IMG/VR virus record: IMGVR_UViG_3300022752_000055
Location: 8,127 to 72,126 of that record
Length of the DNA stretch: 64,000 bases
From: a virus
Strand: one strand, 5' to 3'
Position numbers and translations under genes: made by a program. Position 1 is the first letter of the stretch. Each line of letters starts with the position of its first letter. The notes beneath the pieces are model-generated. The model was not told the origin of the DNA and did not search any database. It was given only the letters and a program-made list of their open reading frames with translations. Shown here piece after piece: positions 2,325-62,384 of this stretch.

Positions 2325-2328
2325 TTTT

Positions 2329-29453: not shown

Positions 29454-29602
29454 TTTTTTTAATTAACGAATACAAATATAATAATAAATCCCATAACAAT
29501 CAAAATAATATTACATTATGTTTAACCATTCTATTAAAGGTTCCGCGCTGATAGTATCTTCCGTCATTATAATTACCATTATCTTTCAACCACCTTAAAA
29601 CA

Positions 29603-35100: not shown

Positions 35101-35545
35101 TAACTACACCCGTACATCCTTGATATGTAGCAAATACGTTTTGTATTTTGGCTTGTATATACCTATCAGTAAATGAGATGGTTGTATCACTAATGTTCCA
35201 ACCATAAAATGTTATGTTTGTACAGCCATTTAGCGTAATTAATACACTTATTGTTGAGTTTGTACCCCAAAATAATGGGTCGGCACCGGTTCCATAAGTA
35301 CCAAAGTAAATGTTAGATTTACTGTTTAATGTTAATGTACCTGTAAATTTACCACCTTTAGCAAATAAAACAGAATCACCATTAGCAACATTACTTTGTG
35401 CCTTAGATAATGTTTTCCAAGGTGTTGCCGGATTTTGAGCTTGTGTTGTTGTGTAAGTATCATTTCCTGATTCACTTACGTAGAATTTTCTTGCATTTGC
35501 CGTTATAGACAAAACAAGAAATAAACAAGTTAATAATTTTTTCAT
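32117..35545 (-). CDS. secreted parallel beta-helix protein with TSP1-like repeats and T9SS type-A C-terminal domain
   Basis: Signal peptide; two FY.S..G.D..PWKTL beta-helix modules; CTFTY..WS.C.G..QTR repeats; ITNVLG..INVSELPRGIY C-terminus. Confidence 0.8.
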   Translation of the reverse strand: MKKLLTCLFLVLSITANARKFYVSESGNDTYTTTQAQNPATPWKTLSKAQSNVANGDSVLFAKGGKFTGTLTLNSKSNIYFGTYGTGADPLFWGTNSTISVLITLNGCTNITFYGWNISDTTISFTDRYIQAKIQNVFATYQGCTGVVIRKCRMDRTGYGVYFPPGNNGNTVDSCDIGNLRMIRNTPTSVNPDDDYGGVPVQLSSSNNTVTNNYFHDCYAASYDYTFDGGGVEFFEEGSVIENNIIAYNTFYDCNGIFEFGSTNDGVANNLIQNNKIYYNKIINNNTVVYINNNGQYRTKVVNLQFYNNVMLQTVPNTNPAGSSGIMFSLATSDATAGIIVLKNNIIQASNGLSLTRSGQLNGTNLTHTNNIYKLSNGSVTNFTLDGTEISTSGTIWVNTTNTNPLNWDYRLTSTSPAINSGANVGLTRDFGGNTVGITPSIGIYQYNSVTPTPCTFTYGTWSTCINGTQTRTYTSTPVGCTGVPPTDSLTRTCTSPTTRGRKFYFSNTGSDSYTVTQAQNPATPWKTLAKLNTLSGIALAGDTFAFKRGEVFANGTEYSTTGSVKWYGGGYEGRNFPSGTATNPIVFTYYGNMSLEGPNLLYPYPSTVKSNEKNVLAFANVSWIVIDGIQFNDTRFPVNDKRSGAYTCAGLWFGDSGYCSGSDGCKCNNIKVTNCNFSNIAYGIVSFVSGFEISNNKFSNFKSTGWITDTLGNADIGADPMLLSGSKYRITNNRITGSWAYANPNSSSSGLLGGAIETINNFDSSFIAYNTFIDCSGGMEFGTNLPGGIQGPDDDTICYNKFINCSNIAYVNTTGTYATQVKNLRFWNNFFVEGSMSRMSGYNAGGDALGDGQTYANTGFIFWPPYPINKSTRYPAEQNFQNAWRPIAAGSTTNQFADTVFDIRNNVFWINNGFYAKYSQSERGKIFYGNNIYHLVSGYQGAVGTFTPTSLGPNTSLATGERIINSKFIVDSSSIYPQNWDMNILSDTCYAATGGVNVGLTRDFVGNLVPSTPSIGIYQKYSTVAVTPCTFTYEPWSPCNGSYQTRRYVLSTIGCVGVPPIDSIQRACTNDIISSFYYISNKNKIYIKSTIPGNMVITNVLGSIVRNISYVANGTTINVSELPRGIYYASTYGKSITFYKN

Positions 35546-35588: not shown

Positions 35589-36083
35589 TTAAAAATCTAT
35601 TCCTTCAACAAATACTGGAAGTCCAATATTTGGTTCCCAATTTTCTTTTATGTGCTCCATTACTTTCATTAATGAATCTGCGGAGTCTCCCTCATCAATT
35701 CCTTCAACAAGTATTTCATCCTTTTCTTTTGGAGTTACCAACTTTATCTTATTTCCGTTTTCAAAATATTCAAACCCATATCCATCTTCATCAATTATAT
35801 TACTTACTTGAAATGAATTATCGTCAAGTATCATAATATCTCTATAATCAATAAGGTCAGCATTAATGAGTCTTGACATTGCTTCATTTGAAAAAATTAT
35901 TTCTTCAGCATCATCCGAAGGTTGTTCTTCTGTTTCAAATTCTTCATCAGGATTTTTAAGTATATGCAATTCTTCGGGAGTTAAAGAATCCTTACCAAAC
36001 TCATACATTTTATCTAAGATTCTATCAACCTCTTCTTGGTTAATTAATTTCTTATATTGTTCTTCTGTTATTATAATTTTCAT
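35589..36083 (-). CDS. leader-bearing protein
   Basis: MKIIITEEQ; VDRILDKM..G.DSLTPEE motif. Confidence 0.75.
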   Translation of the reverse strand: MKIIITEEQYKKLINQEEVDRILDKMYEFGKDSLTPEELHILKNPDEEFETEEQPSDDAEEIIFSNEAMSRLINADLIDYRDIMILDDNSFQVSNIIDEDGYGFEYFENGNKIKLVTPKEKDEILVEGIDEGDSADSLMKVMEHIKENWEPNIGLPVFVEGIDF

Positions 36084-36674: not shown

Positions 36675-37073
36675 TTAACCCGCAATTGTTTTAACGGGAA
36701 GTTCAAATGTTTTCTCAAACCATATTTTAAATCCTGGCTTCCATTCTCCTCTACCAAAAGTTGAATTTAAAGTTTCAACAAGGTCATTTCTAATAATTTC
36801 AATTAGTGGTGCCTTTTCCGCCCAATTATTAATCATATTAATGTTACTTTCGGGGTCAAGACTTTCATAATATTCTTTAAATATATATTCAAAAAGTGGT
36901 TCGTATTCAATATTATTTTTATAATCATCATCATAAAACATAATGAGATTATCATCCATACTCTCTGTTTCATAGTTAAATGAAGATTCATTATATATCC
37001 CATCTTTAAACAAATGTTCCAAGAATAAAACAACCACCTTATTTAATCTATTTTCTGTAATAATGTATTTCAT
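36675..37073 (-). CDS. leader/paralog family protein
   Basis: MKYIITENRL; WFEKTFELPVKTI end. Confidence 0.8.
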   Translation of the reverse strand: MKYIITENRLNKVVVLFLEHLFKDGIYNESSFNYETESMDDNLIMFYDDDYKNNIEYEPLFEYIFKEYYESLDPESNINMINNWAEKAPLIEIIRNDLVETLNSTFGRGEWKPGFKIWFEKTFELPVKTIAG

Positions 37074-37719: not shown

Positions 37720-38265
37720 TTATAGATATTTGTGCCCTTGTTTAACGTTTTGAGGACTTGGTTCATCTTCTGGTTGTGCTTGATGCATAATTGGTGGTAA
37801 TTTTTTACACCAATTTGCCTCAATAGAATCCACCAAACCTTTACTTAAAGTACCATGATGAGTAATTCCGGATTTAAAAGAATCAATATTTTTCATTGAA
37901 ACAAATTCAGCTTCCCTAGTTATTGGAAGGTCTTTTTCAGGTATTGAAGAAGTTTTACATTTATAGATTATGGTAAAATCTATGTTATCTACGCTAGGGT
38001 TAAAACCTCCACCGTCGGCCAACCTACCTTTCTTAGCAGTAATTGATACCATTCTTGGTGTGTCGTATAACTCAAATTTTCCGGAAATATTAGTTATCAT
38101 ATATTGAATAATATCTTTACCCATAAAAAATGTTGATGTTGCATCTTTTAATTCAGCATTTAAATTATCATTTAAACTCTTAACATCTATATCTTGTTCC
38201 ATAATAATTCTTCTAACCAATCTTGTTAAATCATTTTCTGTTAATCTTACAATTCTTTTTACCAT
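37720..38265 (-). CDS. leader-bearing protein
   Basis: MVKRIVRLTENDLTRLVRRIIME. Confidence 0.8.
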   Translation of the reverse strand: MVKRIVRLTENDLTRLVRRIIMEQDIDVKSLNDNLNAELKDATSTFFMGKDIIQYMITNISGKFELYDTPRMVSITAKKGRLADGGGFNPSVDNIDFTIIYKCKTSSIPEKDLPITREAEFVSMKNIDSFKSGITHHGTLSKGLVDSIEANWCKKLPPIMHQAQPEDEPSPQNVKQGHKYL

Positions 38266-38299: not shown

Positions 38300-38662
38300 C
38301 TAATGATTAAACGAAGGTGGAATAAATTTCATTAAATCTCTAACTTTTTTCATATCATGTTTATCGGCAAACCATTCCTTAATATATATCATTGATTCAT
38401 TGCCATCCATAGAAAAAAAACTTGACACCATATTACACAACTCGTTTCCCCTATATATTTTTATGCGTTCACCATCGTTCCAAACATTAAAAGATAATAT
38501 GAGGGTTCGGTTATTTGAATATATGTAATATAATGTTGCCAAATCACTTTTAAAATTTAATGGGTTAAATCGCAATTGTTTTGATTTTTCGCAAATCACA
38601 CCATCACCAACATATGAATCCAAAAATTTAAAAATTACCTTATACATTTTATCTTTTACCAT
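38300..38662 (-). CDS. leaderless paralog family protein
   Basis: KDK..IFKFLD..SSFFSMD..IKEWF resembles the 29154 gene; TATATTTG at 38670-38677. Confidence 0.7.
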   Translation of the reverse strand: MVKDKMYKVIFKFLDSYVGDGVICEKSKQLRFNPLNFKSDLATLYYIYSNNRTLILSFNVWNDGERIKIYRGNELCNMVSSFFSMDGNESMIYIKEWFADKHDMKKVRDLMKFIPPSFNH

Positions 38663-38949
38663 AATAAAGCAAATATAATAAAACATAATTAAACCATCAA
38701 AAAAAGGGGCGGGGGGATTAAACCGACCGAAGGGAGGGGACGAAGTCCGGCGGTCAAGAAATAAACAATAAATTAATATTGTTTTACGCATTCCAAACAT
38801 ATTTATAAATGATGAAAAAAATTAAAAGAAAACATTTAAGAAAAAAACTATTATTAATGCTACATAAGGGCATTAAATTCAAAGGGGAAAGCATCGCGAG
38901 AACCACCGGGTTATTATAAAAAAACCCCTCCGGTAAATAGGGGGGATAG

Positions 38950-39537
38950 TTATTTTGATTTCATATACTTAGCATATCCTTTCCGGATTTTATTGGTGAA
39001 ATGTTTTGAAAGTTCAAAAAATCCTTCAACATCATCGACCTCACCATTTTCATCTTCATACATAGTTAAAGTACGCCACTCAATCTCCCCTCTATAATCC
39101 TTATAATCTTCGGCGTCAAATTCATTGGGGGTGGTTTCAGATATTGCAGTATCTAAAAACTCTTCAAAAATTTTAATTCTCCTTCTATAAAAAGTATCAA
39201 CGGATTCAGTTATATCATCGTCATCATAAAATTCCATAACCCCATCATAATAACTTTCAATATCATCCCAATAGGTTTTTAAAATATATTCCATAAGTTC
39301 ATCAAGTTCTTTGGGGGTTAAATCTAAACCACACATATCAACAACTTTTAAAACAATTTCATCAGCATACTCGTCTAAACTATATTCTTCAGGGTCAGTC
39401 TCAGTAAGAGAATCATTAACATATTCATCAATGTTTTCCATTCTTCTCTTTATGAATAAACTCATATCTTCATTTATAATCTTTTTAACAATTCTATTTA
39501 AATCCGATTCAGTTAATCTTACTATTCTGTTTGCCAT
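38950..39537 (-). CDS. leader-bearing protein with two internal repeats
   Basis: RIVRLTESDL; duplicated F.RR....F....ET.P.E module. Confidence 0.8.
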   Translation of the reverse strand: MANRIVRLTESDLNRIVKKIINEDMSLFIKRRMENIDEYVNDSLTETDPEEYSLDEYADEIVLKVVDMCGLDLTPKELDELMEYILKTYWDDIESYYDGVMEFYDDDDITESVDTFYRRRIKIFEEFLDTAISETTPNEFDAEDYKDYRGEIEWRTLTMYEDENGEVDDVEGFFELSKHFTNKIRKGYAKYMKSK

Positions 39538-39628: not shown

Positions 39629-39901
39629 TTAACAATCTTCCTGTGAATTTATATAATATTGTTTTATATATTCTTCCTTATATTGTTTTATATAATCAAT
39701 AATATCATCACCATTAAGATTATTAAAATTAAACAAAATCAAAGCAATTTTTAAATCCTCCATCACCCCAAGATAAAAATGAGAATCATTTGAATAATCA
39801 CAAGGGCTAGTCGCATCTAATACCGTATCCAAAAATTTATCAATAAAATGTAATCTTCTTCTAAGTGAAAGATTTTGTTCTTCTGTAATAATATACCTCA
39901 T
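39629..39901 (-). CDS. leader-bearing protein
   Basis: MRYIITEEQ; LRRRL..ID..PCDY. Confidence 0.75.
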   Translation of the reverse strand: MRYIITEEQNLSLRRRLHFIDKFLDTVLDATSPCDYSNDSHFYLGVMEDLKIALILFNFNNLNGDDIIDYIKQYKEEYIKQYYINSQEDC

Positions 39902-44657: not shown

Positions 44658-45014
44658 TTATTTCTCTATATTATTTTTATAATACTCCGCAATCTTATCG
44701 TAATACATTGTTTTAAAAAACTCTCTTAGTTCCTCTTCCTCATCATCTGTAATAATCATTTCCGGTTCTAATTCTCCTTCATCCCAATTTTCAAATATAG
44801 GGGAAATGTTATCAATATAAAAACCATCAATAACACTATCAATAAACCACTCAATACCTTTCTCTTTTAATCTTGTTTTGTAATAATTAAAAGTCCATAT
44901 TGTTGATTCAAGAATAAGTTCATCAATGTCATTCAATCTTCTTACCACCATGTTGATGAGTTTTCTATCAACTTCTTCCTTTAATACTTTTCTTATTATT
45001 TGTTGTATACTCAT
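44658..45014 (-). CDS. leader-bearing paralog
   Basis: IQQIIRKVLKEE leader. Confidence 0.75.
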   Translation of the reverse strand: MSIQQIIRKVLKEEVDRKLINMVVRRLNDIDELILESTIWTFNYYKTRLKEKGIEWFIDSVIDGFYIDNISPIFENWDEGELEPEMIITDDEEEELREFFKTMYYDKIAEYYKNNIEK

Positions 45015-45571
45015 TTCTCTATGTTATTTCCCCCGCCATCTAGTTTATCTGTAAATCCCATTAACTTGTCAAATGCCGGGTGTAATGATATCGGTTCCTT
45101 CTTTGTATCTCTCATTGCATCCCACGTGCTAGGTTTAACCTTCATATGGTTTTGAACCAAGTACTTTATCTCATCAATATCCGTTCCATCAAATGTTAAT
45201 ATCCAATCCTTAAATTGTTCCACATAATTCGTAGATTTGTTCTCGTGCCCGTATGCCGTTGGTTCCCCCGTTTTTGGATTAATACCATATGTATCCATCT
45301 TCCCCAAGTCATGGAATAGTGCCGCCATAATCATATTGACATCATCAGGATAGTGATGATATGCCCTCTTTATAACAACGAGTATATGTTTTAAACTATT
45401 TCCCTCCGGATGCCACTTCGGGTTTTGCTTTGCTCCCCATTGCTTAAATAACAACTTCTTTAATTCTTCCGGTAAAGTCCTAATTAACTCATTTGGCGTT
45501 GCAGGCAATTTTTCCTCACATATAAGGTTAATAACTTGTTTTATTCTCTGTATGTTTTCTTGTAGGTTCAT
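45011..45571 (-). CDS. leader-bearing HD-domain phosphohydrolase
   Basis: MNLQENIQRIKQ; QNPKWHPEG..H, AALFHDLGK, GHE, NHM. Confidence 0.85.
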   Translation of the reverse strand: MNLQENIQRIKQVINLICEEKLPATPNELIRTLPEELKKLLFKQWGAKQNPKWHPEGNSLKHILVVIKRAYHHYPDDVNMIMAALFHDLGKMDTYGINPKTGEPTAYGHENKSTNYVEQFKDWILTFDGTDIDEIKYLVQNHMKVKPSTWDAMRDTKKEPISLHPAFDKLMGFTDKLDGGGNNIEK

Positions 45572-46017
45572 ATCTTAATTATTAATACATTTGGTGTTAT
45601 TCCTATTGCCGCTGCGGTGCATAATCTTGTATTACCCGCAACTAAATGATATCTATTTCCAAACTGAATTATCATAGGTGGATTATAATCACCCGATTCC
45701 AAACTCTTTTTTAATTTGTTTGGGTTTGTTTTATTATACTTCTTTGCAATTTTTTCCACCGATTTTATATCTCCTTTATCTATTTCATTTGACTCCGTAT
45801 TTTCCAACTTGGACCATATTGACTTTGTTAGTTTCTTTGGTTCCGCATTTTTAAATTTTTCTTTAACTTCCTTAACCGAAATATCAATATCTTCATCCCT
45901 TGATAAATCCTGAACAGCCCTTTCAATCTCATCCATTTCTGAATTGATATATGATTTGGTGGATTCATTAATCCCCATCATCTGTTTAATCCTATGTATG
46001 TTTTCTTGTAAGTTCAT
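45568..46017 (-). CDS. leader-bearing ParB/Srx-like protein
   Basis: MNLQENIHRIKQMMGINE; PPMII..YHLVAGNTRL. Confidence 0.7.
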   Translation of the reverse strand: MNLQENIHRIKQMMGINESTKSYINSEMDEIERAVQDLSRDEDIDISVKEVKEKFKNAEPKKLTKSIWSKLENTESNEIDKGDIKSVEKIAKKYNKTNPNKLKKSLESGDYNPPMIIQFGNRYHLVAGNTRLCTAAAIGITPNVLIIKI

Positions 46018-46018
46018 T

Positions 46019-46435
46019 TTACTTTTTTTTCTTTACACAATTTGGATATCTTTTACCAAACATTGTTTTCATCCCCTTTTGGGTATATCCCGCCCAACAT
46101 CTTTCAGTTATTTCACCTTCATTCTGCTCTTCTTTACGAGGTTTATCTAGTTCGTTAACAGATTTTACAAATCTACGACATTTATCACTAACTCCACCCT
46201 TTTCGTGGTCGGTTATTGATATTTTAACCTTGTTGTAATTTATTGTAATGTTCGGATGATGGTTTTGTTGTTCAGCTATCTTCGCAACTTTATTAACAAA
46301 ATCAATTGAATCATTAAACTCTTTGAATTTAAATGTTTTTTCCAATTTTTGCTTTGAGTCACCCCAACCTTTGGATTCGTTTACATCCATTACCATTTCC
46401 AATAATGCTTGTCTTATATTTTCTTGTAAGTTCAT
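46019..46435 (-). CDS. leader-bearing pterin-4-alpha-carbinolamine dehydratase-like protein
   Basis: KTFKFKEF..FVNKVA..AE..NHHP.I..YNKV; extra CWAGY..PNCV tail. Confidence 0.8.
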   Translation of the reverse strand: MNLQENIRQALLEMVMDVNESKGWGDSKQKLEKTFKFKEFNDSIDFVNKVAKIAEQQNHHPNITINYNKVKISITDHEKGGVSDKCRRFVKSVNELDKPRKEEQNEGEITERCWAGYTQKGMKTMFGKRYPNCVKKKK

Positions 46436-46468
46436 AATGATATAAATATCCTGTATATTTATAATGAT
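46436..46468. promoter_or_regulatory. divergent pair of TATTTAT (putative late) promoters
   Basis: TATAAATA-TCCTGTA-TATTTATA between two divergent operons. Confidence 0.65.
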
Positions 46469-46888
46469 ATGAAATATATAATAACTGAGGAACAATTAAA
46501 AGGTATTAACAAAACAATTATTAAACTGATTGATACTGAAGGTATTTTTAAGGCTATTGATGTTGTTGGTGATTATGATACCCTTAAAGAACTATTGGGT
46601 GATTATGAAATACCTAGACAACTTAAGATTGATACTATAAAAGAATTTATGAGTCAGAGAGCAGCAACCGGATTTCACCTCGGTGAATTTGATGAAGAAC
46701 CAATACCTTATTTTGAAAATAATGATGGCTATCATCAAATTGAATATTTGGGACCATCAAAAGCAATAATTAATGTGTGGGGTGGTTATAATGGTCAAAC
46801 TGATTTGGGTGAATATGGAGTATCTTATGGAGATTTACCTGAAAAGTCATTAGATGACATAATCGAAATGTTAATCAACCATTACTAA
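46469..46888 (+). CDS. leader-bearing protein
   Basis: MKYIITEEQL. Confidence 0.8.
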   Translation: MKYIITEEQLKGINKTIIKLIDTEGIFKAIDVVGDYDTLKELLGDYEIPRQLKIDTIKEFMSQRAATGFHLGEFDEEPIPYFENNDGYHQIEYLGPSKAIINVWGGYNGQTDLGEYGVSYGDLPEKSLDDIIEMLINHY

Positions 46889-47271
46889 TGAAATATATAA
46901 TAGACGATTTTAGTGAAGAGCAATTAATGAAAATTATTCGTAAATTTGTTCGTCACATATACGGAAAAGATTTAACTATGGTTGAGGATAGTGAAAGATA
47001 TATTAAATTCTTTTCAGTTGGACCGGTACCACCATACCATAGAAATATGGCGGGTCGCTTATGGGTTTATGATGATAGATTAATAAACATAATTATGGAC
47101 TTTTTTTCAACCGATTACGACCAAGCACTTGGTTTGGTTGCATTCTATTTCTCAAACAAATATGACATTAAAATAATGGATGCCAAAGTTCCATCTCACG
47201 TATTTTTTGGTAAAATAGATTATTCACGATTTGACGATGAGAATTACCATATTGAAGATGATGAAGATTAA
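46888..47271 (+). CDS. leader/paralog family protein
   Basis: MKYIIDDFSEEQL; DFFS.DY motif. Confidence 0.8.
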   Translation: MKYIIDDFSEEQLMKIIRKFVRHIYGKDLTMVEDSERYIKFFSVGPVPPYHRNMAGRLWVYDDRLINIIMDFFSTDYDQALGLVAFYFSNKYDIKIMDAKVPSHVFFGKIDYSRFDDENYHIEDDED

Positions 47272-47273
47272 TT

Positions 47274-47606
47274 ATGAAATATATTATAACAGAAAATAGT
47301 TTAAGGAGAGTTCAGTTTAAGTATTTGGATTACTTATTTGAGGGTATGCATGTAATTAAAATGCTTTCACCGGATGATAATATATTTTCAGGGCCTAATG
47401 CAATATTTTGGAAAAAAAATGATAGTATATTATTGGTACTTAGAATTCGCGAAAAAAATAAATTAGAAGTTACATATCCAATTTGGGAAGATATATCCAA
47501 TATGTTTTCATTGGATTATTATGAAACTCAGGAACTTATGGAAGAATGGGCGGAACAACGTTTGGGGGTGGGAAAAGTCAAAGCCGCATCGGTTGATTTT
47601 TTTTAA
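47274..47606 (+). CDS. leader-bearing paralog of the array-associated gene
   Basis: MKYIITENSL; WEDISNMFSLDYYETQELMEEWAEQ. Confidence 0.85.
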   Translation: MKYIITENSLRRVQFKYLDYLFEGMHVIKMLSPDDNIFSGPNAIFWKKNDSILLVLRIREKNKLEVTYPIWEDISNMFSLDYYETQELMEEWAEQRLGVGKVKAASVDFF

Positions 47607-47618
47607 TAAATTAAAATT

Positions 47619-47918
47619 ATGAAATACATTATAACGGAAGAACAAAACTATTATTTAAGAAGATTACGTATTATTGATAATTTAATTAAAAGTTCTCTTG
47701 AAATGTTTGATTTATGGGGAATTAAAAAAATAGATGTTGATTATATGATTAAATTTCTCACAACAGATGTTACTGAATCTTATTTTTTTAAATTCAGTGA
47801 CGACATTTATGTTGGCGGTGAGGAATATGATGAATTAACCGATTTTGTTGAATCGTATTTAAATAGTAGTTGGAGAGATAAACTTGAAAAAATAATAAAA
47901 AGTAAGAAAGGAAAATGA
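47619..47918 (+). CDS. leader-bearing paralog
   Basis: MKYIITEEQ; LRRL.IID. Confidence 0.8.
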   Translation: MKYIITEEQNYYLRRLRIIDNLIKSSLEMFDLWGIKKIDVDYMIKFLTTDVTESYFFKFSDDIYVGGEEYDELTDFVESYLNSSWRDKLEKIIKSKKGK

Positions 47919-48226
47919 AATACGTTATAACTGAAGAACAACAAAAAAGTTTAAAAAACCATATGTTAGAACTTTTAAATTATAGTTTTAAAGATAGTAA
48001 TATTGTTTGTGAAATAAAAGTAACCGATGTTGAAGAAGATGATGATGATTATAACGACGGATTAAGATATGATATTTACGTTTTCATTAACTCCTCGTTC
48101 ACTAGAGCTGTCGGCATTTACGGATATAAAGTTGCAACACAAAGAAAAATAGATTCCTTAATGGAAGATTGGTTTGGATTAAATAAAAACGAATATTACG
48201 TTTCAATTTCCGCTAAAGATTGTTAA
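47915..48226 (+). CDS. leader-bearing protein
   Basis: MKYVITEEQ. Confidence 0.8.
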   Translation: MKYVITEEQQKSLKNHMLELLNYSFKDSNIVCEIKVTDVEEDDDDYNDGLRYDIYVFINSSFTRAVGIYGYKVATQRKIDSLMEDWFGLNKNEYYVSISAKDC

Positions 48227-48227
48227 T

Positions 48228-48605
48228 ATGAAATACATTATAACTGAAGAACAAAATTTAAGATTATTCAAAATAATGGAGAATCTTATGTTAGAAAAAT
48301 TTCCTGAACTTGAATTTCCTTTAGTAAAAAAGAATATTCCATCAATAAGTAATCGTGGATATGGCTCATCTTTAGATGACTATTATCTAATTACAACATC
48401 ATACAAAGATGAAGATGGTGAAACTTGGTTTAAAGAATTTGATGGTAGAGACCTTTACCAAGATTCCAAATGGGAAGTTAATGATAAATTAGAATTACTT
48501 CTTGATACGTTTGATGAAGAGTTTTTTATGGATTTCGTCAAACATTATTTTAACATAGACCTTAGAGAAAAAGGTAATAAAAAATATGATTGGGTTTTTA
48601 GATAA
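48228..48605 (+). CDS. leader-bearing protein
   Basis: MKYIITEEQ. Confidence 0.8.
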   Translation: MKYIITEEQNLRLFKIMENLMLEKFPELEFPLVKKNIPSISNRGYGSSLDDYYLITTSYKDEDGETWFKEFDGRDLYQDSKWEVNDKLELLLDTFDEEFFMDFVKHYFNIDLREKGNKKYDWVFR

Positions 48606-48614
48606 TTATACAAT

Positions 48615-48974
48615 ATGAAATACATTATAACAGAAGACAAATTAAAAAAGTTTCTAAAAAGACAATTTGGAGTTGATTTGACCGGTGATGTTGAAATGAT
48701 TACTTCAGTTCATCAAATTCCTTCAGTATTTGCTAGATTCTTCAGCACAAGTGAAATTACTCGTCATTTGAACCATTATGGACCAATGTATACAGTAAGA
48801 ATAAATAAGACTGGTGAAACGTTTTTAATTCAGGATAAAGGTGGTAATGAGTTGTATATTTATACAAGCCTTGGTTATAGAATTAATGAAGAAATTTTTT
48901 TTGAAAGGATTGGAATGGAACCTATTATATCTGTTATGGATTTGATAGACCAATATTATAAAGAGGAAGATTAA
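48615..48974 (+). CDS. leader-bearing protein
   Basis: MKYIITEDKL. Confidence 0.8.
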   Translation: MKYIITEDKLKKFLKRQFGVDLTGDVEMITSVHQIPSVFARFFSTSEITRHLNHYGPMYTVRINKTGETFLIQDKGGNELYIYTSLGYRINEEIFFERIGMEPIISVMDLIDQYYKEED

Positions 48975-49438
48975 ACGTAAACGGGCACATTATTCTTTTC
49001 TTCTTCAGTTGGTGGAAATGCATAATATACGTTAAATAAACTATAGTGTGGTTCAAAACCTATATTTTCGGCTAACTCCTCAATTTTTTGACTTAAAGCA
49101 TATGGTTGTCCTTGATAACTTTTATCTATAAAACCTCTATCAATCTCACTTCCGTAATATAAAAACGTCTCTTCTTTTCTTGAATAATTACCCCAATTCT
49201 TACTTAGTTTCGTAAAGTATTCAGGTTTGATTTCTATTAGTATTCTTGCACCCCAAGTGTGTTTAGTTAATTCCCGATGGTGTTCCGTCTCTTCTTTTAA
49301 TTCAATATAATAAACTCCCTCAACCCAAGGATAATCTCCTTTGTTTAAGATAATTTTATTTATCATCTTACCTAAAACTTCCTTTGATTGAGAATCGTCC
49401 TCTCTTAATACTTTTCTTATGGTTTCTCTTAAATTCAT
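48971..49438 (-). CDS. leader-bearing protein
   Basis: MNLRETIRKVLRE. Confidence 0.8.
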   Translation of the reverse strand: MNLRETIRKVLREDDSQSKEVLGKMINKIILNKGDYPWVEGVYYIELKEETEHHRELTKHTWGARILIEIKPEYFTKLSKNWGNYSRKEETFLYYGSEIDRGFIDKSYQGQPYALSQKIEELAENIGFEPHYSLFNVYYAFPPTEEEKNNVPVYV

Positions 49439-50358
49439 TATGATTTTTTCTTAATTAATGAGAAGTAATATCTCATAGTGTTAAACTTATCATCAGGTTC
49501 TACTATAAGTAATGGTTTATTATCATACATTGAATCCAATTTTTCTTTGATATCAACCCAATCTAAACTAGGAAACCAAGTAGCATAGTTTTTTAATAAA
49601 TCGTTCCAAGTTTTAAATGAATCACTAAAACCATTACCCCCGTTTCTGTCAGCATGTTTCCAAAATATATATGTGGTTCCTTCTTCGTCACCACTCTCAT
49701 TATAAAAATTTGAAATATATTCCGCAATATCACTACCATACTTTTCCTTTAAATAATTTGCAATTTTTTTTTCTGCATCATGAAACTCATCATTATCTAA
49801 ATGTGTATGTGTTGAATCAAGTATTTCATATGCTGTGTTCTTACAAGCCCACCAAACAACTACCGCAACTACTTTTTCTAATTTAAACGATTGAATTGCA
49901 AACTTTCTAAGATAATTAATTATCTCTTCATCTGTATATCTATTTCTTCTTCTTACAAATAAAGGTATTTCACTTTCTTCTTTTATTATTGATTCATCTA
50001 TATTTTTACAATTTGGACGTGAACTACCATAGATATCAACTATAATCCCAAATGTATCAATTATTAAATCTTGAAGTTCATTCATAATTTTTTCTTCTTT
50101 GTTATGAACTGCCATAGTCTTCGGCCAATTTTTTGAGCCATGCCCCGAATCAAAATAAAGTGTAACTTTGAACCTTTGATACCTTTCTCCTGAATTTTTT
50201 GTTGCAAACTTTCCTAACTCTAACTTATAATCACAGATGTATTCTTTTTCTTCACTACTCCTTAAAAAATACTCTATCAGTTTTTTGAGTGGTACTGATA
50301 AATTTTTCTTTTTTTCCTCTTCTTTTAATACTTTTCTTATGGTTTCTTGTAGATTCAT
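49438..50358 (-). CDS. leader-bearing multi-module protein
   Basis: MNLQETIRKVLKEE; internal IDESIIKEE junction. Confidence 0.8.
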   Translation of the reverse strand: MNLQETIRKVLKEEEKKKNLSVPLKKLIEYFLRSSEEKEYICDYKLELGKFATKNSGERYQRFKVTLYFDSGHGSKNWPKTMAVHNKEEKIMNELQDLIIDTFGIIVDIYGSSRPNCKNIDESIIKEESEIPLFVRRRNRYTDEEIINYLRKFAIQSFKLEKVVAVVVWWACKNTAYEILDSTHTHLDNDEFHDAEKKIANYLKEKYGSDIAEYISNFYNESGDEEGTTYIFWKHADRNGGNGFSDSFKTWNDLLKNYATWFPSLDWVDIKEKLDSMYDNKPLLIVEPDDKFNTMRYYFSLIKKKS

Positions 50359-50362
50359 ATTA

Positions 50363-51184
50363 TTAATAACTTTCTCCCGTTCCTTCATAAATTAATTTTA
50401 TACATTTGGATGGTATATTTTCAAATGTAAGTATATGATATTCATAATCCCCACCTCTATAATGTTTATCTTTATACCAAGTAACTTCAGCACAATCTGT
50501 ATTAATCAACCAAACATCATCATCCCAACTAGAATCAAACCAATAATTTTCATTTTCAGAGTCAGTCGCAAAAATTGCTGGTTCACATTCTTCCTCACTA
50601 AAATTTTGTGAATAAGTTTTATAACAATCACCTACCGATGCTTGTAATCCTGTTTCAAGAATATTTTCTCTCCAAATAGGGTTTGATTTATGAATAACAA
50701 ATCTATTAGGAAAATATTCATCACCCGCTGGCGAATATGTCTCTTCCTTTAATATTCTTCTTATGGTTTCTTGTAGATTATTTTTGTCTATTAACATTTC
50801 GTTAGGGTCAACACCCAATTCTTCTAAACTCCACAATATTTGGTTATATTTACCATCATAAATCTTTTTAACTAAATCATTTCTGTATGGTTCAGGGTTT
50901 GCGGTTTTTGTAATTGCATTGTAAATCCAACTATCCGGTTTCGCATCTAAAATATTTTTTAGTGTAATTAAATGAACGTATGGTTCTTTTAACCATTCTT
51001 TATAAGTTTTGGAGCTTGGGTCACCATCAATTGCTGGTGTTACAAACACCGCACCCACACTTATAAGTTTGTCAACATCAAACGGGAGCCTATCCTCGTA
51101 AGGAATAGTATTTCTAGTCTCATCATAGTCATAAACTCTATCGTCTTCCTTTAATATTCTTCTTATGGTATGTCTTATATTCAT
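50363..51184 (-). CDS. two-module protein with ADP-ribosyltransferase/Tpt1-like C-terminal module
   Basis: Leader at start plus internal NLQETIRRILKEE; IHKS..ENILETGL..AIFAT..ENIP..CI. Confidence 0.6.
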   Translation of the reverse strand: MNIRHTIRRILKEDDRVYDYDETRNTIPYEDRLPFDVDKLISVGAVFVTPAIDGDPSSKTYKEWLKEPYVHLITLKNILDAKPDSWIYNAITKTANPEPYRNDLVKKIYDGKYNQILWSLEELGVDPNEMLIDKNNLQETIRRILKEETYSPAGDEYFPNRFVIHKSNPIWRENILETGLQASVGDCYKTYSQNFSEEECEPAIFATDSENENYWFDSSWDDDVWLINTDCAEVTWYKDKHYRGGDYEYHILTFENIPSKCIKLIYEGTGESY

Positions 51185-52074
51185 TAAGTGTTAACTTTTA
51201 TCATATTATAAAAATAATTGGTAATTCCTTCAAAACTTTTTAAATTCTTTTGTTTCAAATCATCTCTTGTTTTGGAAATTAAATTTTCAAAATGTCGTAA
51301 AGGCACGCTACTATACATCGCGTTTATTTTTCTATCATCATCCTTATCTATTAAACCAATTTTAATAAATTCCCTTAATTTCCTTGTCGCAAATTCATCG
51401 GCAATTATCTCAACTTCTTTCATTGCTTTGGCAGCGTCCTCAACACTTACCTCACCCAAATAACATTCATACATTTTATCATCACCATATTTTTTATATT
51501 GATATTGGTGTGCGATTTCGTGAGCCACCACAAATAAAAAAGACGATAATGGGTAATTAAAAATTGTTTCATTAAAGAGAACCCCATTATGTAACGCCAA
51601 CCCCATCGCCGGAAATTTAAATTTGGAAACTTCTATCTTTTTGCAGTTTGAATTCTCTATAAATGATTTAATTTCGTCTATATATATTTCTGTTTCAGGA
51701 TAAGTTGACATAATCCTATATAAGAATGGTCTAATTCCTTCCGTTTCTTCCTTTAATACTTTTCTTGTGGTTGATTCTTTTATATTAACCGGAGTATCAC
51801 AATCTAATCTTATTACGATTAGTTCAAGATGTGGTAAATAATCATTGATATTTTTACTTACAATATTTTCCATGTCGTGATTATGATAATCACTTTGAAG
51901 AATAACAAGATAATTTTTAATAATTTCACCATCTCCTGACTCATAGTCAATTACCCTAACTTGGACTCCGCATAAATGCTTAATATCCATACTCAAGACA
52001 ATATCTTCAATATATTTGCACCACCTATCCTCCTTAAACTTATTTACCTGTGCTTCTGTTATAATGTATTTCAT
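51184..52074 (-). CDS. two-module protein with C-terminal zincin (HExxH)
   Basis: MKYIITEAQ; internal RKVLKEE; AHEIAHQYQ..E..ADEFA. Confidence 0.7.
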   Translation of the reverse strand: MKYIITEAQVNKFKEDRWCKYIEDIVLSMDIKHLCGVQVRVIDYESGDGEIIKNYLVILQSDYHNHDMENIVSKNINDYLPHLELIVIRLDCDTPVNIKESTTRKVLKEETEGIRPFLYRIMSTYPETEIYIDEIKSFIENSNCKKIEVSKFKFPAMGLALHNGVLFNETIFNYPLSSFLFVVAHEIAHQYQYKKYGDDKMYECYLGEVSVEDAAKAMKEVEIIADEFATRKLREFIKIGLIDKDDDRKINAMYSSVPLRHFENLISKTRDDLKQKNLKSFEGITNYFYNMIKVNT

Positions 52075-52091
52075 TTTATTAATAGTTAAAA

Positions 52092-52409
52092 TTATACGCA
52101 CTCATCTTCTATTGTATATCTATAATATTCTTTAACATCCTTCCCCATTTTTTCCTTAATAACATTTTTTATATATAAACAAAGGGGAGCAAATAATTTA
52201 TTTTGCCAATCATTAAAGAAGTTTAACAAATAAGTTTCGGCAGAACTTGTTGATACCACTTCTAAATACTCGTCCTCAGTTTTAAATTCGCAAGGATAGT
52301 AAAGGTCAGTACCCTCATCAACTATCTCCCTAATCCACACTAAATCATCTCTAGTTCTACGAAGAATTTGTAACATTATTTCTTGAGATTCCGTTATTAT
52401 AATTTTCAT
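52092..52409 (-). CDS. leader-bearing paralog
   Basis: MKIIITESQ; ILRR..PCEF. Confidence 0.75.
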   Translation of the reverse strand: MKIIITESQEIMLQILRRTRDDLVWIREIVDEGTDLYYPCEFKTEDEYLEVVSTSSAETYLLNFFNDWQNKLFAPLCLYIKNVIKEKMGKDVKEYYRYTIEDECV

Positions 52410-52678
52410 CTTTTATAAATATCAAAAGATTAACTTATGGTTAAAATAAAATAATATACACCATCTACCTACCTTAAAGATATTTATAATATAGATAAAT
52501 AGTGATGAAAATAGGTATATAATTTTTACATTAAACTATCCATATGAAAGTATTAAAAACTATAAAAAACTTCTTTGATGGTCTATTATTTTCTAAGGAG
52601 CATATTGAATATGAAATAATGAAGAGATTTCTAAATGGGAAATAATATCACTAAAAATTTGTACTACGCGGCATTCTG

Positions 52679-52751
52679 CACGCACGTGAGGACTCGAACC
52701 TACCATCTTCGGTTTTGGAGACCGATGTTCTACCAATTGAACTACGCACGC
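52679..52751 (-). tRNA. trnW: tRNA-Trp(CCA)
   Basis: Anticodon arm TCGGT-CTCCAAA-ACCGA; D arm GTTC/GAAC; TTCGAGT loop; T stem imperfect. Confidence 0.85.
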
Positions 52752-52759
52752 ATTTTATT

Positions 52760-53161
52760 TTATAATTTTATCTCGAACCTACCCCTCATAATTTCCAACT
52801 TATTATCCGGGACTCCGTGTTCGTTTACACCTCCGTGTCTATTCTCCACAACAACGTGAAAAACTATGTATCCGTATTTTCTTGCAATTATCTCATAAAA
52901 CCTCATTTCCCATTCTTGGGTAAAGGTATTTGACACAACAACTGTGTTATAAAATAAACGGCGAAATAAACTTGGGTGCATTGCTTTATGAACTTTTCTT
53001 TTACAATCATTATGGGCGTCCTTTATTTTGGTATAATCAAATTTATATTCGCCATCTTTAATGAAGAACATATCGGCTTCAATGTGAAGTCCACCTAATG
53101 TTTTTGCAAATGTGCTTTTACCTGAGCCGGGGGCGCCTCTCAATAATGTTAGTTCTTTCAT
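52760..53161 (-). CDS. P-loop kinase (AAA_33 / polynucleotide-kinase-like)
   Basis: LLRGAPGSGKSTFA, EADMFF, VVVSNTF, HGVP. Confidence 0.85.
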   Translation of the reverse strand: MKELTLLRGAPGSGKSTFAKTLGGLHIEADMFFIKDGEYKFDYTKIKDAHNDCKRKVHKAMHPSLFRRLFYNTVVVSNTFTQEWEMRFYEIIARKYGYIVFHVVVENRHGGVNEHGVPDNKLEIMRGRFEIKL

Positions 53162-53361
53162 ATTAATCTAATTGTTTTTGGTTTAACGTGTTGTACCGGT
53201 GTTCTATCAAGGGTCACCTGAAAACCCCAACTTGGGATAAAATCATTATATCCCAAGAACTGACAGGTTCCTACCCATCTTTCACCTTTTTCGGTTTCTA
53301 CGGATATTCTTTTACCCATAAATTGTTCCCTCATTTTCTCTATTTGTTCCTGTTGTATCAT
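53158..53361 (-). CDS. hypothetical protein
   Basis: TTTG-N20-TACCTTTG promoter at 53366-53397. Confidence 0.7.
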   Translation of the reverse strand: MIQQEQIEKMREQFMGKRISVETEKGERWVGTCQFLGYNDFIPSWGFQVTLDRTPVQHVKPKTIRLI

Positions 53362-53398
53362 AGAACAAAGGTAAGGTATGTTTGATTATCCGCCAAAT

Positions 53399-53728
53399 TT
53401 AATATAAATCTTCTGAGAATAATCTGTTCTCAAAATCTATTTTGTGTCCGTTTGCGGTGTGAATTTTGGCACCCTCTTCTCTATCTACAAATCTGTTTTT
53501 ACTTGTAAGGAATCCCTGTATATGTTCACCGGAACAGTCTTCACCAATTTCACAAGTTCGTAAACCTGTTATTGAAGTCATTGTATACATACATTGGGCG
53601 TGTCTATGTCCGCAGAATACTAAACCCCTATCACAATTAACGGGTCGTATCATCGCTTCACTTGGAAGTTCTTTTTTTAATGGTATATTTAAATACCAAA
53701 TCGCGGCACAGAGGATATATTCTTTCAT
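53399..53728 (-). CDS. conserved phage hypothetical protein
   Basis: CAAIW..GHRH..QGFLTS.NRFVDR.E..LFSEDLY. Confidence 0.8.
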   Translation of the reverse strand: MKEYILCAAIWYLNIPLKKELPSEAMIRPVNCDRGLVFCGHRHAQCMYTMTSITGLRTCEIGEDCSGEHIQGFLTSKNRFVDREEGAKIHTANGHKIDFENRLFSEDLY

Positions 53729-53731
53729 AAT

Positions 53732-53941
53732 TTATTCTTTTACATAGTCCATTGTTTCTCTCATTTTGGCAATTAACGCCTCCAAACTTTCAGTGTTTAA
53801 ATACAATCTACCCTTATAATCCGTATCATCAATATCTTTAAACTCCAACGTAATCCCATCAAACTCAGGTGTTGGCTGAATCCTTATATCTTGTTCTAGA
53901 TGTGTTGTAATCTCTGTTTTAATCCAAACTTTATTTTTCAT
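53732..53941 (-). CDS. hypothetical protein
   Basis: 69-aa ORF in operon. Confidence 0.65.
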   Translation of the reverse strand: MKNKVWIKTEITTHLEQDIRIQPTPEFDGITLEFKDIDDTDYKGRLYLNTESLEALIAKMRETMDYVKE

Positions 53942-53942
53942 A

Positions 53943-54152
53943 TTATTTATTTTTTAATTGTTCGTGAGTAAGGGGGTCTCCACAGTCAACACAAGTATAG
54001 ATTATTGTAAAGTAATCACCTTCATTGTGCAAGGTTTTATTAATAAAAGCCCCCGGTTCTTTTACATACTTGTTTGGATAAAAATAAGTTCTACTTATCG
54101 GTTTATGTTGGTTACAAAAGTCACATTTTCCAATTTCTATATTTCCACTCAT
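53943..54152 (-). CDS. small Zn-finger protein
   Basis: CDFC and CVDC pairs. Confidence 0.65.
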   Translation of the reverse strand: MSGNIEIGKCDFCNQHKPISRTYFYPNKYVKEPGAFINKTLHNEGDYFTIIYTCVDCGDPLTHEQLKNK

Positions 54153-54269
54153 ATTATTTAGTTTTTAGTCGTTATTTACAATGTTATCAAAAACTTTTCT
54201 CACACCCCACTTCACTATCTCCCAAATTATTATTGTTAGTATTATTATCTTCATAAAAAAATATTTTTG

Positions 54270-54343
54270 TGGACTCACTTGGGCTCGAACCAAGGACTTC
54301 AAAATTATGAGTTTTGCACTCTTACCTACTGAGTTATGAGTCC
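54270..54343 (-). tRNA. tRNA with CAT anticodon (Met or Ile2)
   Basis: GGACTCA/TGAGTCC acceptor; CAAAA-CTCATAA-TTTTG; CTTGG-TTCGAGC-CCAAG. Confidence 0.9.
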
Positions 54344-54349
54344 AAATAA

Positions 54350-54487
54350 GGAAAACAGAAGATGGGTCGGTGGACATCTGTTTTTATGATTGGCATTACT
54401 CTGTATTTGAAGGATTACCCTATTACCCCTCCGAATAGATAACTGTTTCTAATGTTACCACCATTATCTACCTTTCCCAATCAACCT
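54350..54487 (-). ncRNA. candidate structured ncRNA upstream of the tRNA
   Basis: Stems AAAACAG(AA)GATG/CATCTGTTTT, GATTGG/CCAATC, TAGATAA/TTATCTA and TATTTGAAGG/CCTCCGAATA. Confidence 0.4.
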
Positions 54488-54493
54488 AAAAAT

Positions 54494-54874
54494 TTATTCG
54501 GTTTCATAACTATACATAATACCACTATCATATACAATACAATATAACATATGACTTGACACCTCAGGTTTGAATTTTTTCATCATAAAATGACATTTTT
54601 CACCTTCACCATTGATACATTTCCAATCATACGTTACGTGAGTTTCATATGTTGTTTTTTCCGGTGCATCATAGGTTCTGTATTTCTTTTCACCAATGGT
54701 AAGAGACCAATCTTTTAAAATTACAAACATTTCTTTTGGATTATCGGTCGCAACTGTTTTCCATTCCTCTCCCGTCCATTCACTTTTAGTTGCTTGAATA
54801 ACTCTGTTAAAATCTTGAGAATAACTAAATAAAGTTAAGAGTAGACCGACTACCATGAGTGTTACTTTTTTCAT
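54494..54874 (-). CDS. secreted protein
   Basis: Signal peptide MKKVTLMVVGLLLTLFSYS-Q. Confidence 0.75.
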   Translation of the reverse strand: MKKVTLMVVGLLLTLFSYSQDFNRVIQATKSEWTGEEWKTVATDNPKEMFVILKDWSLTIGEKKYRTYDAPEKTTYETHVTYDWKCINGEGEKCHFMMKKFKPEVSSHMLYCIVYDSGIMYSYETE

Positions 54875-54888
54875 ATTGTTTTTTTTAG

Positions 54889-54960
54889 TAGTCCGGAGAG
54901 GAATCGAACCTCTATATACAGATTAGAAATCTGTCATTCTATCCGTTGAATTACCAGACC
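54889..54960 (-). tRNA. trnR: tRNA-Arg(TCT)
   Basis: GGTCTGG/CCGGACT acceptor; ACAGA-TTTCTAA-TCTGT; AGAGG-TTCGATT-CCTCT; TTTG-N19-TATATTTG promoter upstream. Confidence 0.9.
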
Positions 54961-61025: not shown

Positions 61026-61338
61026 TAGTAGAGTAATAACACAATTCCAATTCCCCAAGGAACTGATAGACGAACAAAAACATATAATGGGTGAGGAACA
61101 ACTTTCCGCAATATTAAACAAACAGCTCATAGAAAGATTTGTGAATGAGATGTTGTCTACCCGTTTACAGGATATAAAAACAGAAGAAGTTATTGACTCC
61201 GATGGCAAGTCAACTTTACAAATGAAAATGAATCTATACATCTTTAATAAAGAGGAACTTACCAAGTTAATTGAAGATGTGGAGAAGCGTGTAATCTTAA
61301 ATAACTTTATTGAATCAGTTGAAAATAAAAAATTATGA
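61018..61338 (+). CDS. hypothetical protein
   Basis: Coupled to thyA by an ATGA overlap. Confidence 0.7.
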   Translation: MINSRVITQFQFPKELIDEQKHIMGEEQLSAILNKQLIERFVNEMLSTRLQDIKTEEVIDSDGKSTLQMKMNLYIFNKEELTKLIEDVEKRVILNNFIESVENKKL

Positions 61339-62384
61339 ATATAGACAAACAATATCAAAAACTACTTCAGGATATAATCCACAATGGAGTTGAGAAGAAA
61401 GACAGAACTGGTACAGGAACCATAAGTGTTTTCGGTAGACAAATCCGCCACAAAATGAGTGAGGGATTTCCGTTGATTACCACCAAAAAAATGGCGTTTA
61501 AAACTATGGTGACAGAACTACTATGGTTCTTGCGTGGTGATACATCTATCAAATATCTTGTTGATAATGGATGTCATATCTGGGATGGTGATGCTTATAA
61601 GAACTTTGAGAAACAATGTGTTACTGGAACAGGAAAGAAAATGACGCAGGAAGAATTTATCAACTTTATTAAAACCGATGATGAGTTTGCTAAGAAGTGG
61701 GGGTCACTCGGAAAAATTTATGGGTTTCAGTGGCGTAATTGGGGTAAAGATTTCAAACAAATACCAAACGAAACTGGTGATAAAGTTTATGATATCACAA
61801 CAACGGGAATAGACCAAATCGCAAACCTAATCTCTGAACTCAAAACAAATCCTGACTCAAGACGATTACTTGTGTCAGCGTGGAATGTGGAGGATGTTGA
61901 AAGTGGTAGTATGGTACTTCCACCCTGTCATTATGGATTTCAAGTATATACAAGAGAGTTGAGTGAAAGTGAAAGATATGATTTATGTGCTGCACAGAAA
62001 AGCAAGATGACCGCAATATCAGAAGAAGATTACATTAAATATAATATCCCAACCAGAGCAATCTCTTTAATGTGGAATCAACGCAGTTGCGATTTTCCGC
62101 TTGGGATTCCCGCAAACATAATGTCATATGCATTATTATTAACGATGTTTGCTAAACAACTTAATATGGTTCCTGATGAACTAATTGGAAATTTGGGTGA
62201 CTGTCACATATATTTAAACCAAATTGAAGGAGTTAAAGAACAATTAACAAGAGAACCATACGAGTTACCAACAGTAAAATTATTGGATAGGGTTGTAAAT
62301 GATATTTCAGAATATACTTTGAATGATATTATTTTAGAGAATTATCAGTCACACCCAAAAATATATTTTCCATTATCTAATTAA
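61335..62384 (+). CDS. thyA: thymidylate synthase
   Basis: DRTGTGT, ELLWFL, YGFQWR, SRRL, LPPCH, QRSCD..LG.P.N, GDCHIY. Confidence 0.97.
   Translation: MNIDKQYQKLLQDIIHNGVEKKDRTGTGTISVFGRQIRHKMSEGFPLITTKKMAFKTMVTELLWFLRGDTSIKYLVDNGCHIWDGDAYKNFEKQCVTGTGKKMTQEEFINFIKTDDEFAKKWGSLGKIYGFQWRNWGKDFKQIPNETGDKVYDITTTGIDQIANLISELKTNPDSRRLLVSAWNVEDVESGSMVLPPCHYGFQVYTRELSESERYDLCAAQKSKMTAISEEDYIKYNIPTRAISLMWNQRSCDFPLGIPANIMSYALLLTMFAKQLNMVPDELIGNLGDCHIYLNQIEGVKEQLTREPYELPTVKLLDRVVNDISEYTLNDIILENYQSHPKIYFPLSN

Follow-up and report, generated by a model that had tools for sequence, protein, structure and literature searches.

The virus DNA examined here, a 64,000-nucleotide (nt) stretch referred to as the window (bases 8127-72126 of the 72,126-bp IMG/VR virus record IMGVR_UViG_3300022752_000055, whose CheckV completeness is 25%), carries a small gene, hereafter the array gene, whose 3' end has the look of a CRISPR array and appears to be translated. 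We give an even chance to the reading that this is a translated cassette array that grows by polar duplication and insertion of units, which are later filtered by translation. An alpha/beta domain of about 80 residues ends in a helix-turn motif, the 36 nt of which alternate with 30-nt variable segments. New units would be added only beside the domain, by exact duplication of the first repeat and insertion of an unrelated 30-nt segment without regard to frame; units would be lost, moved and exchanged between related phages through recombination between repeats; and translation would act as a filter, with open-frame units persisting, drifting as coding sequence and becoming the shared, degenerate distal part. 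The anatomy of the array, its polarity, its frame statistics and its spread across a protein family are direct observations.

Anatomy of the array

Parsed in codon phase, the array comprises 10 units running on the minus strand from 29220 to 28569; a repeat search detected eight 41-nt copies at 66-nt spacing (Table 1). The protein unit is 22 residues long, made of the 36-nt motif (the repeat) and the 30-nt variable segment (the spacer). Seven of the window's 10 spacers are 30 nt, the others being 21, 33 and 33 nt, and no two are alike. Identity of the detected copies to the reference copy ranges from 63 to 100%, with most at 63-80%, and only the first two repeats are identical (36/36); a pattern built from these two matched twice in the window versus not at all in 100 shuffles. 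Tandem Repeats Finder called nothing at 28569..29223. Bases 22-28 of the 36-mer, GG(A/G)GGAA, are nearly invariant and include two G-ending codons, unusual in an AT-rich genome (GC content of the window, 30.5%). The same bases resemble a Shine-Dalgarno sequence; no start codon is placed after them.

The array is read in frame with the gene

The array is, as far as its sequence can tell, the translated 3' half of a phage gene. First, the array frame has a single stop in 216 codons, while the other five frames have 30, 8, 16, 5 and 13; base composition predicts about 16.5 stops in the array frame (P of one or fewer, about 6e-7). Second, the units are 22, 22, 22, 22, 22, 19, 23, 23 and 22 residues long, so that all length changes are of whole codons. 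Third, the 194-residue open reading frame (ORF) that holds most of the array has 46 relatives in a collection of 5.8 billion proteins, all of them uninterrupted, and at least 38 of the 46 join the N-terminal domain (N-domain) to between 2 and about 13 units in one ORF of 119-337 residues. The fused gene is also present in related loci found by the N-domain alone (L004, L009, L010, L012, L013, L014/L015 and L016); the IMG/VR loci were retrieved with an alignment as query, a single-protein query giving none. Finally, spacers that are shared but not identical differ at 19 synonymous and 31 non-synonymous positions (18 non-independent pairs), and their ratio of non-synonymous to synonymous differences per site (pN/pS) is 0.49 in the gene frame versus 1.60 and 0.84 in the other frames.

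The lone in-frame stop is the TAG that ends spacer 1, and the codon after it is the ATG of repeat 2. In this genome it is the newest unit that carries the TAG; as a result, gene calling splits the gene into ORFs of 99 and 194 residues. A sequencing or assembly error at this position was considered and rejected: a 96-nt piece (29117..29212, containing repeat 2, spacer 1 and repeat 1) recurs unchanged in Logan contigs of the runs X3, X4 and X5, from two other studies. Since three further runs carry this piece unchanged, the TAG form is a real and persistent lineage. Global recoding of TAG was likewise rejected, as treating TAG as sense lifts the covered fraction merely from 0.829 to 0.847, TAG closes only six of the 90 ORFs of at least 90 residues, and none of the three tRNAs in the window is a suppressor. 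The standard bacterial code (code 11) fits the window, the remaining stops of those 90 ORFs being TAA (76) and TGA (8). Lake and freshwater metagenome runs from 13 studies hold near-identical DNA; none of the 24 runs listed as holding it is RNA data.

Repeat boundaries, private spacers and polarity

The DNA unit is not a unit of codons. The first base of the repeat is the third base of the codon before it. This base is G in 31 of 42 distinct spacer-plus-repeat pairs, whereas in the long ORFs of the window G fills 12.5% of third positions (P about 1e-19). The last two bases of the repeat are the CC of a proline codon. In locus L012 the wobble base of that proline codon runs A, T, A, A, G, C, T through seven repeats whose other 35 bases are the same bar one change. 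Synonymous sites in the repeat do not vary freely: in the gene frame, the 41 distinct repeats give a pN/pS of 1.06, whereas comparison of the N-domain with its relatives gives a pN of 0.02-0.15, a pS of 0.12-0.56 and a pN/pS of about 0.1-0.6.

The repeats nearest the domain are identical base for base. This holds for the first two repeats in the window, in L011 and in L016, for five repeats in gene 3 of L008, and for six of the seven proximal repeats of L012, the seventh having a single change. On the distal side, repeats are degenerate and units are common to relatives. Eleven spacers are private (window 1-2, L012 1-6, L011 1-2, L016 1), with at most 6 of 9 residues matched in any of 193 family proteins. 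All 11 are domain-proximal, and nine lie between two base-identical repeats; the two others, spacer 2 of the window and spacer 2 of L011, have an identical repeat before them and a diverged one after. Ranked by position from the domain in 40 arrays, private spacers make up 25% at position 1, 17% at position 2 and 3-8% at positions 3-4. The six L012 spacers had no match in the 5.8-billion-protein collection, among the 8,000 scored candidates that shared most words. Three of the 11 private spacers contain in-frame stops (TAG in the window; TAA and TAG in one L011 spacer and TGA in the other), and all shared spacers are open. The L011 array (2235..2500) is thus a second, independent 'broken' array, with stops in its two newest spacers and open older units downstream. 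This arrangement is the one expected of polar growth, and suggests that new units are added at the domain-proximal end with exact duplication of the adjacent repeat.

The shared part of the arrays is mobile. One spacer is identical at 30 of 30 bases in the window, L004 and L014, where it occupies array positions 4, 6 and 3, respectively, in genes whose N-domains are 82-83% identical. More generally, the same cassettes appear in differing orders across 47 arrays, and the arrays of relatives vary in unit content.

The single-unit paralogue and the protein family

Elsewhere in the window lies a second gene of the same kind, on the plus strand (47274..47606). A preliminary description of this DNA had called it a paralogue of the array gene with one repeat-equivalent and no array, and all three points hold. 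The two proteins share 41 of 103 aligned residues (40%; E 1e-25), the aligned stretches being those it had quoted as W.DIS.MFS.DY.ETQ.L..EW.EQ. The repeat-equivalent, 47549..47584, runs from the wobble G of a Trp codon to the second base of the 12th codon beyond, and is therefore in the same codon register as the array repeat at 29220..29185 on the minus strand; it matches array repeat 1 at 20 of 36 bases (against an average of 8.4 matches when 36-mers are drawn at random from the window, P about 7e-5), with identity of 6/11 at every codon position. After it come a seven-residue tail and a TAA, and no second copy of the repeat was found 3' of the gene, the first 21 nt of the motif being matched there at 10/21 at best. 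The YIITE residues of the N-terminal leader are missing from the array gene, as had been noted. The 'similar W-containing C-termini' reported at 30339, 36675 and 38300 belong to relatives, if weak ones (38300..38800 versus the paralogue, E 0.002; 30339..30680 versus 36675..37073, E 2e-5), and 30339 is not a gene end: it is the start of a plus-strand gene that ends at 30680.

Both genes belong to a large family, with which they share the N-domain fold and the motif W-xEExLKLGGxTP. A profile built from the two matched 163 representative clusters (50% identity) at E of 1e-3 or less, 35 of them at 1e-10 or less, among 1.84 billion proteins, and most members are 95-135 residues long. An alignment of 41 sequences has the family-wide C-terminus TQQxIKxW-xEExLKLGGxTP followed by a short variable tail. 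The array repeat thus encodes the family's conserved C-terminal motif, W-[VM]EExLKxxxVTP, in keeping with the preliminary description. An AlphaFold2 model of the paralogue, made from a 129-sequence alignment, is confident (predicted local distance difference test score, pLDDT, 89; predicted template modelling score, pTM, 0.81) and places the last helix at residues 82-97 and the last strand at 103-107, with the repeat-equivalent spanning the helix end, the turn and the strand start. By the labels seen, the family is confined to phages. Pfam and PHROGs hold no family for the three main proteins, Foldseek found no match for the domain in the PDB at E of 0.001 or less, and a wide VIA-align search gave it a best Z of 4.7. 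The nine matches in BFVD at E of 1e-3 or less are all uncharacterised phage proteins, and those in the ESM Atlas are only 'hypothetical protein' clusters of Uroviricota.

It had also been proposed, as an alternative, that a CRISPR repeat was captured and domesticated as the family's C-terminus, which we consider very improbable. What speaks for it is a formal resemblance, many members having at their 3' end a repeat and a partial second repeat on either side of a 29-30-nt segment. Against it, the confident model of the domain (pLDDT 89) puts the motif at the last-helix end and in the turn; over 163 clusters the motif is kept at the level of the protein, with DNA differing between members; and it matches no known CRISPR repeat family in Rfam or in 185,579 species genomes.

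Arrays in other members of the family

The window's array is one of many. Arrays were found in L004, L009-L016, L007/L008, L005 gene 2 and the family proteins P0067, P0147, P0165 and P0167, the last four and others having 2-6 units. The preliminary description would have been refuted had the array gene been alone in the family in having an array and had the synonymous sites of the segment been free to vary, and neither is the case. In L007/L008 (32% identity), two genes carry 66-nt arrays of a different repeat, again with identical proximal and degenerate distal copies; the 66-nt arrays of these loci and of other clusters are independent. L005 contains four tandem single-domain paralogues whose domains are 79-88% and whose repeats are 75-94% identical, while their 29-nt spacers are unrelated in five of six pairs (41-55%) and identical in the sixth. 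A partial repeat follows each of these genes and abuts the ATG of the next, which encodes a protein of the MKYIITE type, and L005 gene 2 equals the tail of gene 3 with an additional unit on the proximal side. In 28 of 147 representatives a W-x tail lies about 10 residues past the motif; in L005, by our own reading of the sequence, it corresponds to the partial second repeat, translated one base off frame.

How the units may be added

To our knowledge, integration by Cas1-Cas2 is the only process in which an array gains, at one end, both a duplicated target of about 36 bp and an insert of about 30 bp. The putative insertion step in the phage arrays, with a 36-bp target duplication, a fixed 30-bp insert and single-end polarity, would bear a signature of the Cas1-Cas2 type at a pseudo leader-repeat junction (...LIKEW/VEE...). 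The conserved TQQLIKEW codons and the low-degeneracy codons that follow (Trp, Met or Val, Glu) would provide all members with a conserved junction. Nivala et al. reportedly described off-target ('neo-CRISPR') spacer integration by Cas1-Cas2 in 2018. Cas1-Cas2 is reported to integrate at non-CRISPR sites that share features of the repeat (PMC6698737). If units are indeed added by polar duplication-insertion, about half of our confidence in that process goes to an enzyme of the Cas1-Cas2 type. A more specific version is that the family is a natural target of CRISPR-type integration by host Cas1-Cas2 or an unrecognised phage integrase, which would act at the LIKEW/VEE leader-repeat junction and, per event, add a 36-bp duplication and a random 10-residue peptide to the C-terminus of the protein; this we consider rather unlikely. 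Of the two alternatives in the preliminary description, the one in which a coding motif became a substrate for insertion agrees with the polarity, with proximal repeats that are identical base for base and with spacers that are private.

Several observations weigh against growth by polar insertion, or against one or other part of it. Neither cas1 above the cut-off nor cas2 was found in five related phage records, which include a complete 309-kb array-carrying genome; the window's own record is 25% complete. The degenerate repeat pattern (34 nt, 21 bases fixed) gave three single hits and no array in 185,579 species genomes, a collection outside which the host may lie. Protospacers were not found in 197 kb of related loci, the five phage records, IMG/VR (an exact search with three spacers) or GenBank phages, collections that are small relative to lake viromes. 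Repeat sequences vary widely across the family, which a single sequence-specific integrase would need to tolerate. The stop-bearing fraction of private spacers, 3 of 11, is not significantly below the roughly 55% that we estimate for random sequence by arithmetic from the per-codon stop probability (P about 0.06). A folded function of the repeats is not supported by AlphaFold2, which gives the repeat region a pLDDT of 26-49. Finally, every record used is a metagenome assembly, and the sample is small and related: the close subfamily amounts to nine distinct DNA arrays, and the shared-spacer comparison to the 18 non-independent pairs.

Alternative explanations

The strongest rival is an ordinary protein tandem repeat, in which the C-terminal 22-residue unit is amplified by slippage or unequal crossing-over, gene conversion keeps the repeats similar, and the variable halves diverge or are exchanged within a cassette pool under diversifying selection, with no insertion involved; we regard it as unlikely but serious. 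It accounts directly for an open frame in phase with the gene, for whole-codon unit lengths and fused ORFs in relatives, for the reordering of cassettes among the 47 arrays and for shared spacers that evolve as coding sequence, and it needs neither the cas genes nor the protospacers that the phage records and collections searched failed to yield. Coding tandem repeats are, moreover, a known class of false CRISPRs (PMC5294841). On the other hand, duplication of whole units cannot yield identical repeats around unrelated spacers, as seen in seven repeats of L012 and five of L008, and slippage of whole units is therefore excluded. Gene conversion limited to the 36 nt could make the repeats alike but leaves the private spacers, their position and their stops unexplained. 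An amplified protein unit also sits poorly with a boundary of identity that meets the codons at position 3 on one flank and at position 2 on the opposite flank, with private units at the domain end only, three of 11 bearing stops, with L012 spacers that match nothing else in the protein collection searched, with a repeat pN/pS of about 1, and with an array that Tandem Repeats Finder does not call.

Quite improbable, in our judgement, is a genuine phage-borne CRISPR array, mini-array or repeat decoy, used with host Cas proteins against competing phages or to titrate Cas, the open frame being incidental. What speaks for it is the form: 36-nt repeats, 30-nt spacers, growth at a leader-like end and degenerate terminal repeats, together with the conserved TAnnTTTG upstream in six of eight relatives. 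Virus-borne mini-arrays and solitary repeats are known (PMC11656645, PMC10651486), and the solitary-repeat search of the latter masked ORFs, so that in-ORF cases would have been missed. Of the usual marks of a CRISPR array, spacers that are unique and of uniform length are present here, and repeats that stay near-identical along the whole array are not: most window repeats, at 63-80% identity to the reference, are too degenerate for uniform processing. The repeats are also unstructured, with no hairpins and z-scores of -0.05 to 1.58, and an Rfam search of the window at gathering thresholds returned three tRNAs only and no CRISPR-DR family. No such repeat array was found in the 185,579 species genomes, although known mini-arrays share the repeats of their hosts (PMC11656645), and the spacers match no related phage in the 197 kb of loci and five records. 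The locus is neither non-coding, given its open frame, fused ORFs and spacer pN/pS of 0.49, nor intergenic as a mini-array would be, since it lies in frame inside a gene; strong depletion of stops and whole-codon indels instead show selection on translation. A functional non-coding CRISPR locus in the usual sense is not supported by the sequence.

The upstream motif bears on regulation as well. TAnnTTTG, a putative Bacteroidota-type promoter box, stands upstream of the gene rather than of the repeat, and the tight co-directional cluster that holds the paralogue lacks the motif. The array gene may possibly be regulated differently from its paralogue, but the firm statement to this effect in the preliminary description goes too far: it rests on a single 8-mer, which in the window occurs within 80 nt upstream of 10 of 90 ORF starts, close to the 6.7% of random 80-nt windows.

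Comparison with known systems

T4-type gp38 adhesins are proteins in which conserved motifs and hypervariable segments are shuffled by recombination, and MIMIVIRE comprises repeated inserts inside a giant-virus ORF. Both resemble the phage arrays in having short conserved DNA motifs that bound variable segments in a viral ORF, with cassettes that recombine; neither is known to have a fixed 36+30 unit, polar addition of base-identical repeats or stop-bearing units. Like CRISPR arrays, the phage arrays have direct repeats of 36 nt and unique spacers of 30 nt, appear to grow at one end as the first repeat is duplicated exactly, hold older distal units in common with relatives and close with a degenerate terminal repeat. 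Unlike CRISPR arrays, the array lies inside a gene, in frame and apparently filtered by translation, most of its repeats are degenerate, and the same architecture recurs over a protein family whose members differ in repeat sequence.

Virus-borne mini-arrays and solitary repeats (RNA anti-CRISPRs) are similarly phage-borne, devoid of cas genes and made of one to few units, and many family members, with only a repeat, a spacer and a partial repeat, look like mini-arrays. However, the known ones are intergenic, have repeats identical to those of the host and carry spacers against related viruses (PMC11656645, PMC10651486, PMC6858448), and none of these three features was observed for this array in the searches above. 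False CRISPRs in coding genes such as SdrC likewise have a repeat-spacer look inside an ORF, lack cas genes and are translated. Their defining trait is that spacers do not vary, and Tandem Repeats Finder detects roughly half of them (PMC5294841). In the phage array, by contrast, spacers do vary, those at one end are private, and the program calls nothing. Set against CRISPR arrays, mini-arrays or solitary repeats, and false CRISPRs, the phage array departs from each of the three in one or more of the defining features tested. A limited search of open-access literature turned up no account of a phage gene holding a repeat-spacer array that is in frame and polar.

Genomic context

Other features of the window (Table 1) are consistent with a large tailed phage, to judge from a thymidylate synthase and a weak match to a tail tape-measure protein. 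In some relatives the last residues of the array (...NKNEKK) are the other-frame reading of the start region of the 37-residue gene next to it. The MKYIITE(E/N)Q N-terminus occurs in at least 12 small genes of the window (46469..48974 on the plus strand; 31341..32111, 35589..36083, 36675..37073, 39629..39901 and 51184..52101 on the minus strand), seven of which stand head to tail with gaps of 0-12 nt. Window translations contain two further groups with N-terminal signatures of their own, MNLQE(N/T)I(R/H)R(I/V)K and (I/V)RLTE(S/T/N)(D/E)L(N/T/I)R(I/L)V, seen at 44658..46495 and 48971..51184 (minus strand) and at 28022..28405, 37720..38265 and 38950..39537 (minus strand), which suggests that the phage may have more multi-copy families of small proteins. 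A protein of 1142 residues (32117..35545, minus strand) has, in translation, a signal-peptide-like start and two similar halves, each opening ...RKFY.S..G.D.YT.TQAQNPATPWKTL. Outside the window, a TnpB/Cas12f-like ORF of 448 residues (PF07282, 76.8 bits) lies about 11 kb from the L007/L008 arrays.

Table 1. Positions of the array, its paralogue and other features (window coordinates unless a contig is named; R, repeat; aa, amino acids).
Feature	Position	Strand	Remarks
Array gene as called (code 11), 99 aa	29154..29453	-	78-residue N-domain, repeat 1 and spacer 1; ends with TAG 29156..29154
Repeat 1, 36 nt	29185..29220	-	Wobble G of Trp codon to CC of Pro codon
Spacer 1, 30 nt	29155..29184	-	Private to the lineage; encodes IANGFTSDS; gives TA of the in-frame TAG
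Repeat 2	29119..29154	-	Same 36 bases as repeat 1; opens with the G of the TAG
ORF of 194 aa	28569..29153	-	Array-gene frame; repeats 2-10, spacers 2-9 and tail TSFFVIK; ATG immediately past the TAG
Array per repeat search	28592..29223	-	8/10 units detected, 66-nt spacing
Gene for 37-aa hydrophobic protein (MKKNNWDIGL...)	28441..28554	-	Overlaps or adjoins array end; same place in L004, L009, L011, L012
TATATTTG motif	29473..29480	-	Starts 27 nt upstream of array-gene ATG; candidate promoter box
Single-unit paralogue, 110 aa	47274..47606	+	Inside tight co-directional gene cluster 46469..48974
Repeat-equivalent of paralogue	47549..47584	+	Last-helix end and turn, up to last-strand start (AlphaFold2 model)
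TnpB/Cas12f-like ORF, 448 aa, about 11 kb from L007/L008 arrays	G002:C1:292479-292673, G003:C1:56898-57092		TnpB-like ORF not taken as related
Three tRNA genes, Trp-CCA, Met-CAT, Arg-TCT	52678..54960	-	Rfam/tRNA search; no suppressor among them
Thymidylate synthase	61335..62384	+	phrog_160, E 1.9e-107
Tail tape-measure protein, weak match	10224..11456	-	phrog_1272, E 2.7e-7

Implications

The case is relevant to array-finding programs and to surveys of arrays in phages, in which ORFs are masked (PMC10651486). Even if no integrase is involved, a coding repeat here mimics nearly all structural hallmarks of a CRISPR array, including the 36/30 unit, the polarity, proximal spacers that are private and a terminal repeat that is degenerate. 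If, on the other hand, an integrase adds the units, this would be the first repeat-spacer array read as protein, a new way for a virus to diversify the end of a protein, and a natural case, in a phage genome, of a non-CRISPR target that undergoes CRISPR-type integration. The family would then carry a translated 'protein CRISPR array', a new diversity-generating mechanism edited by selection on the reading frame.

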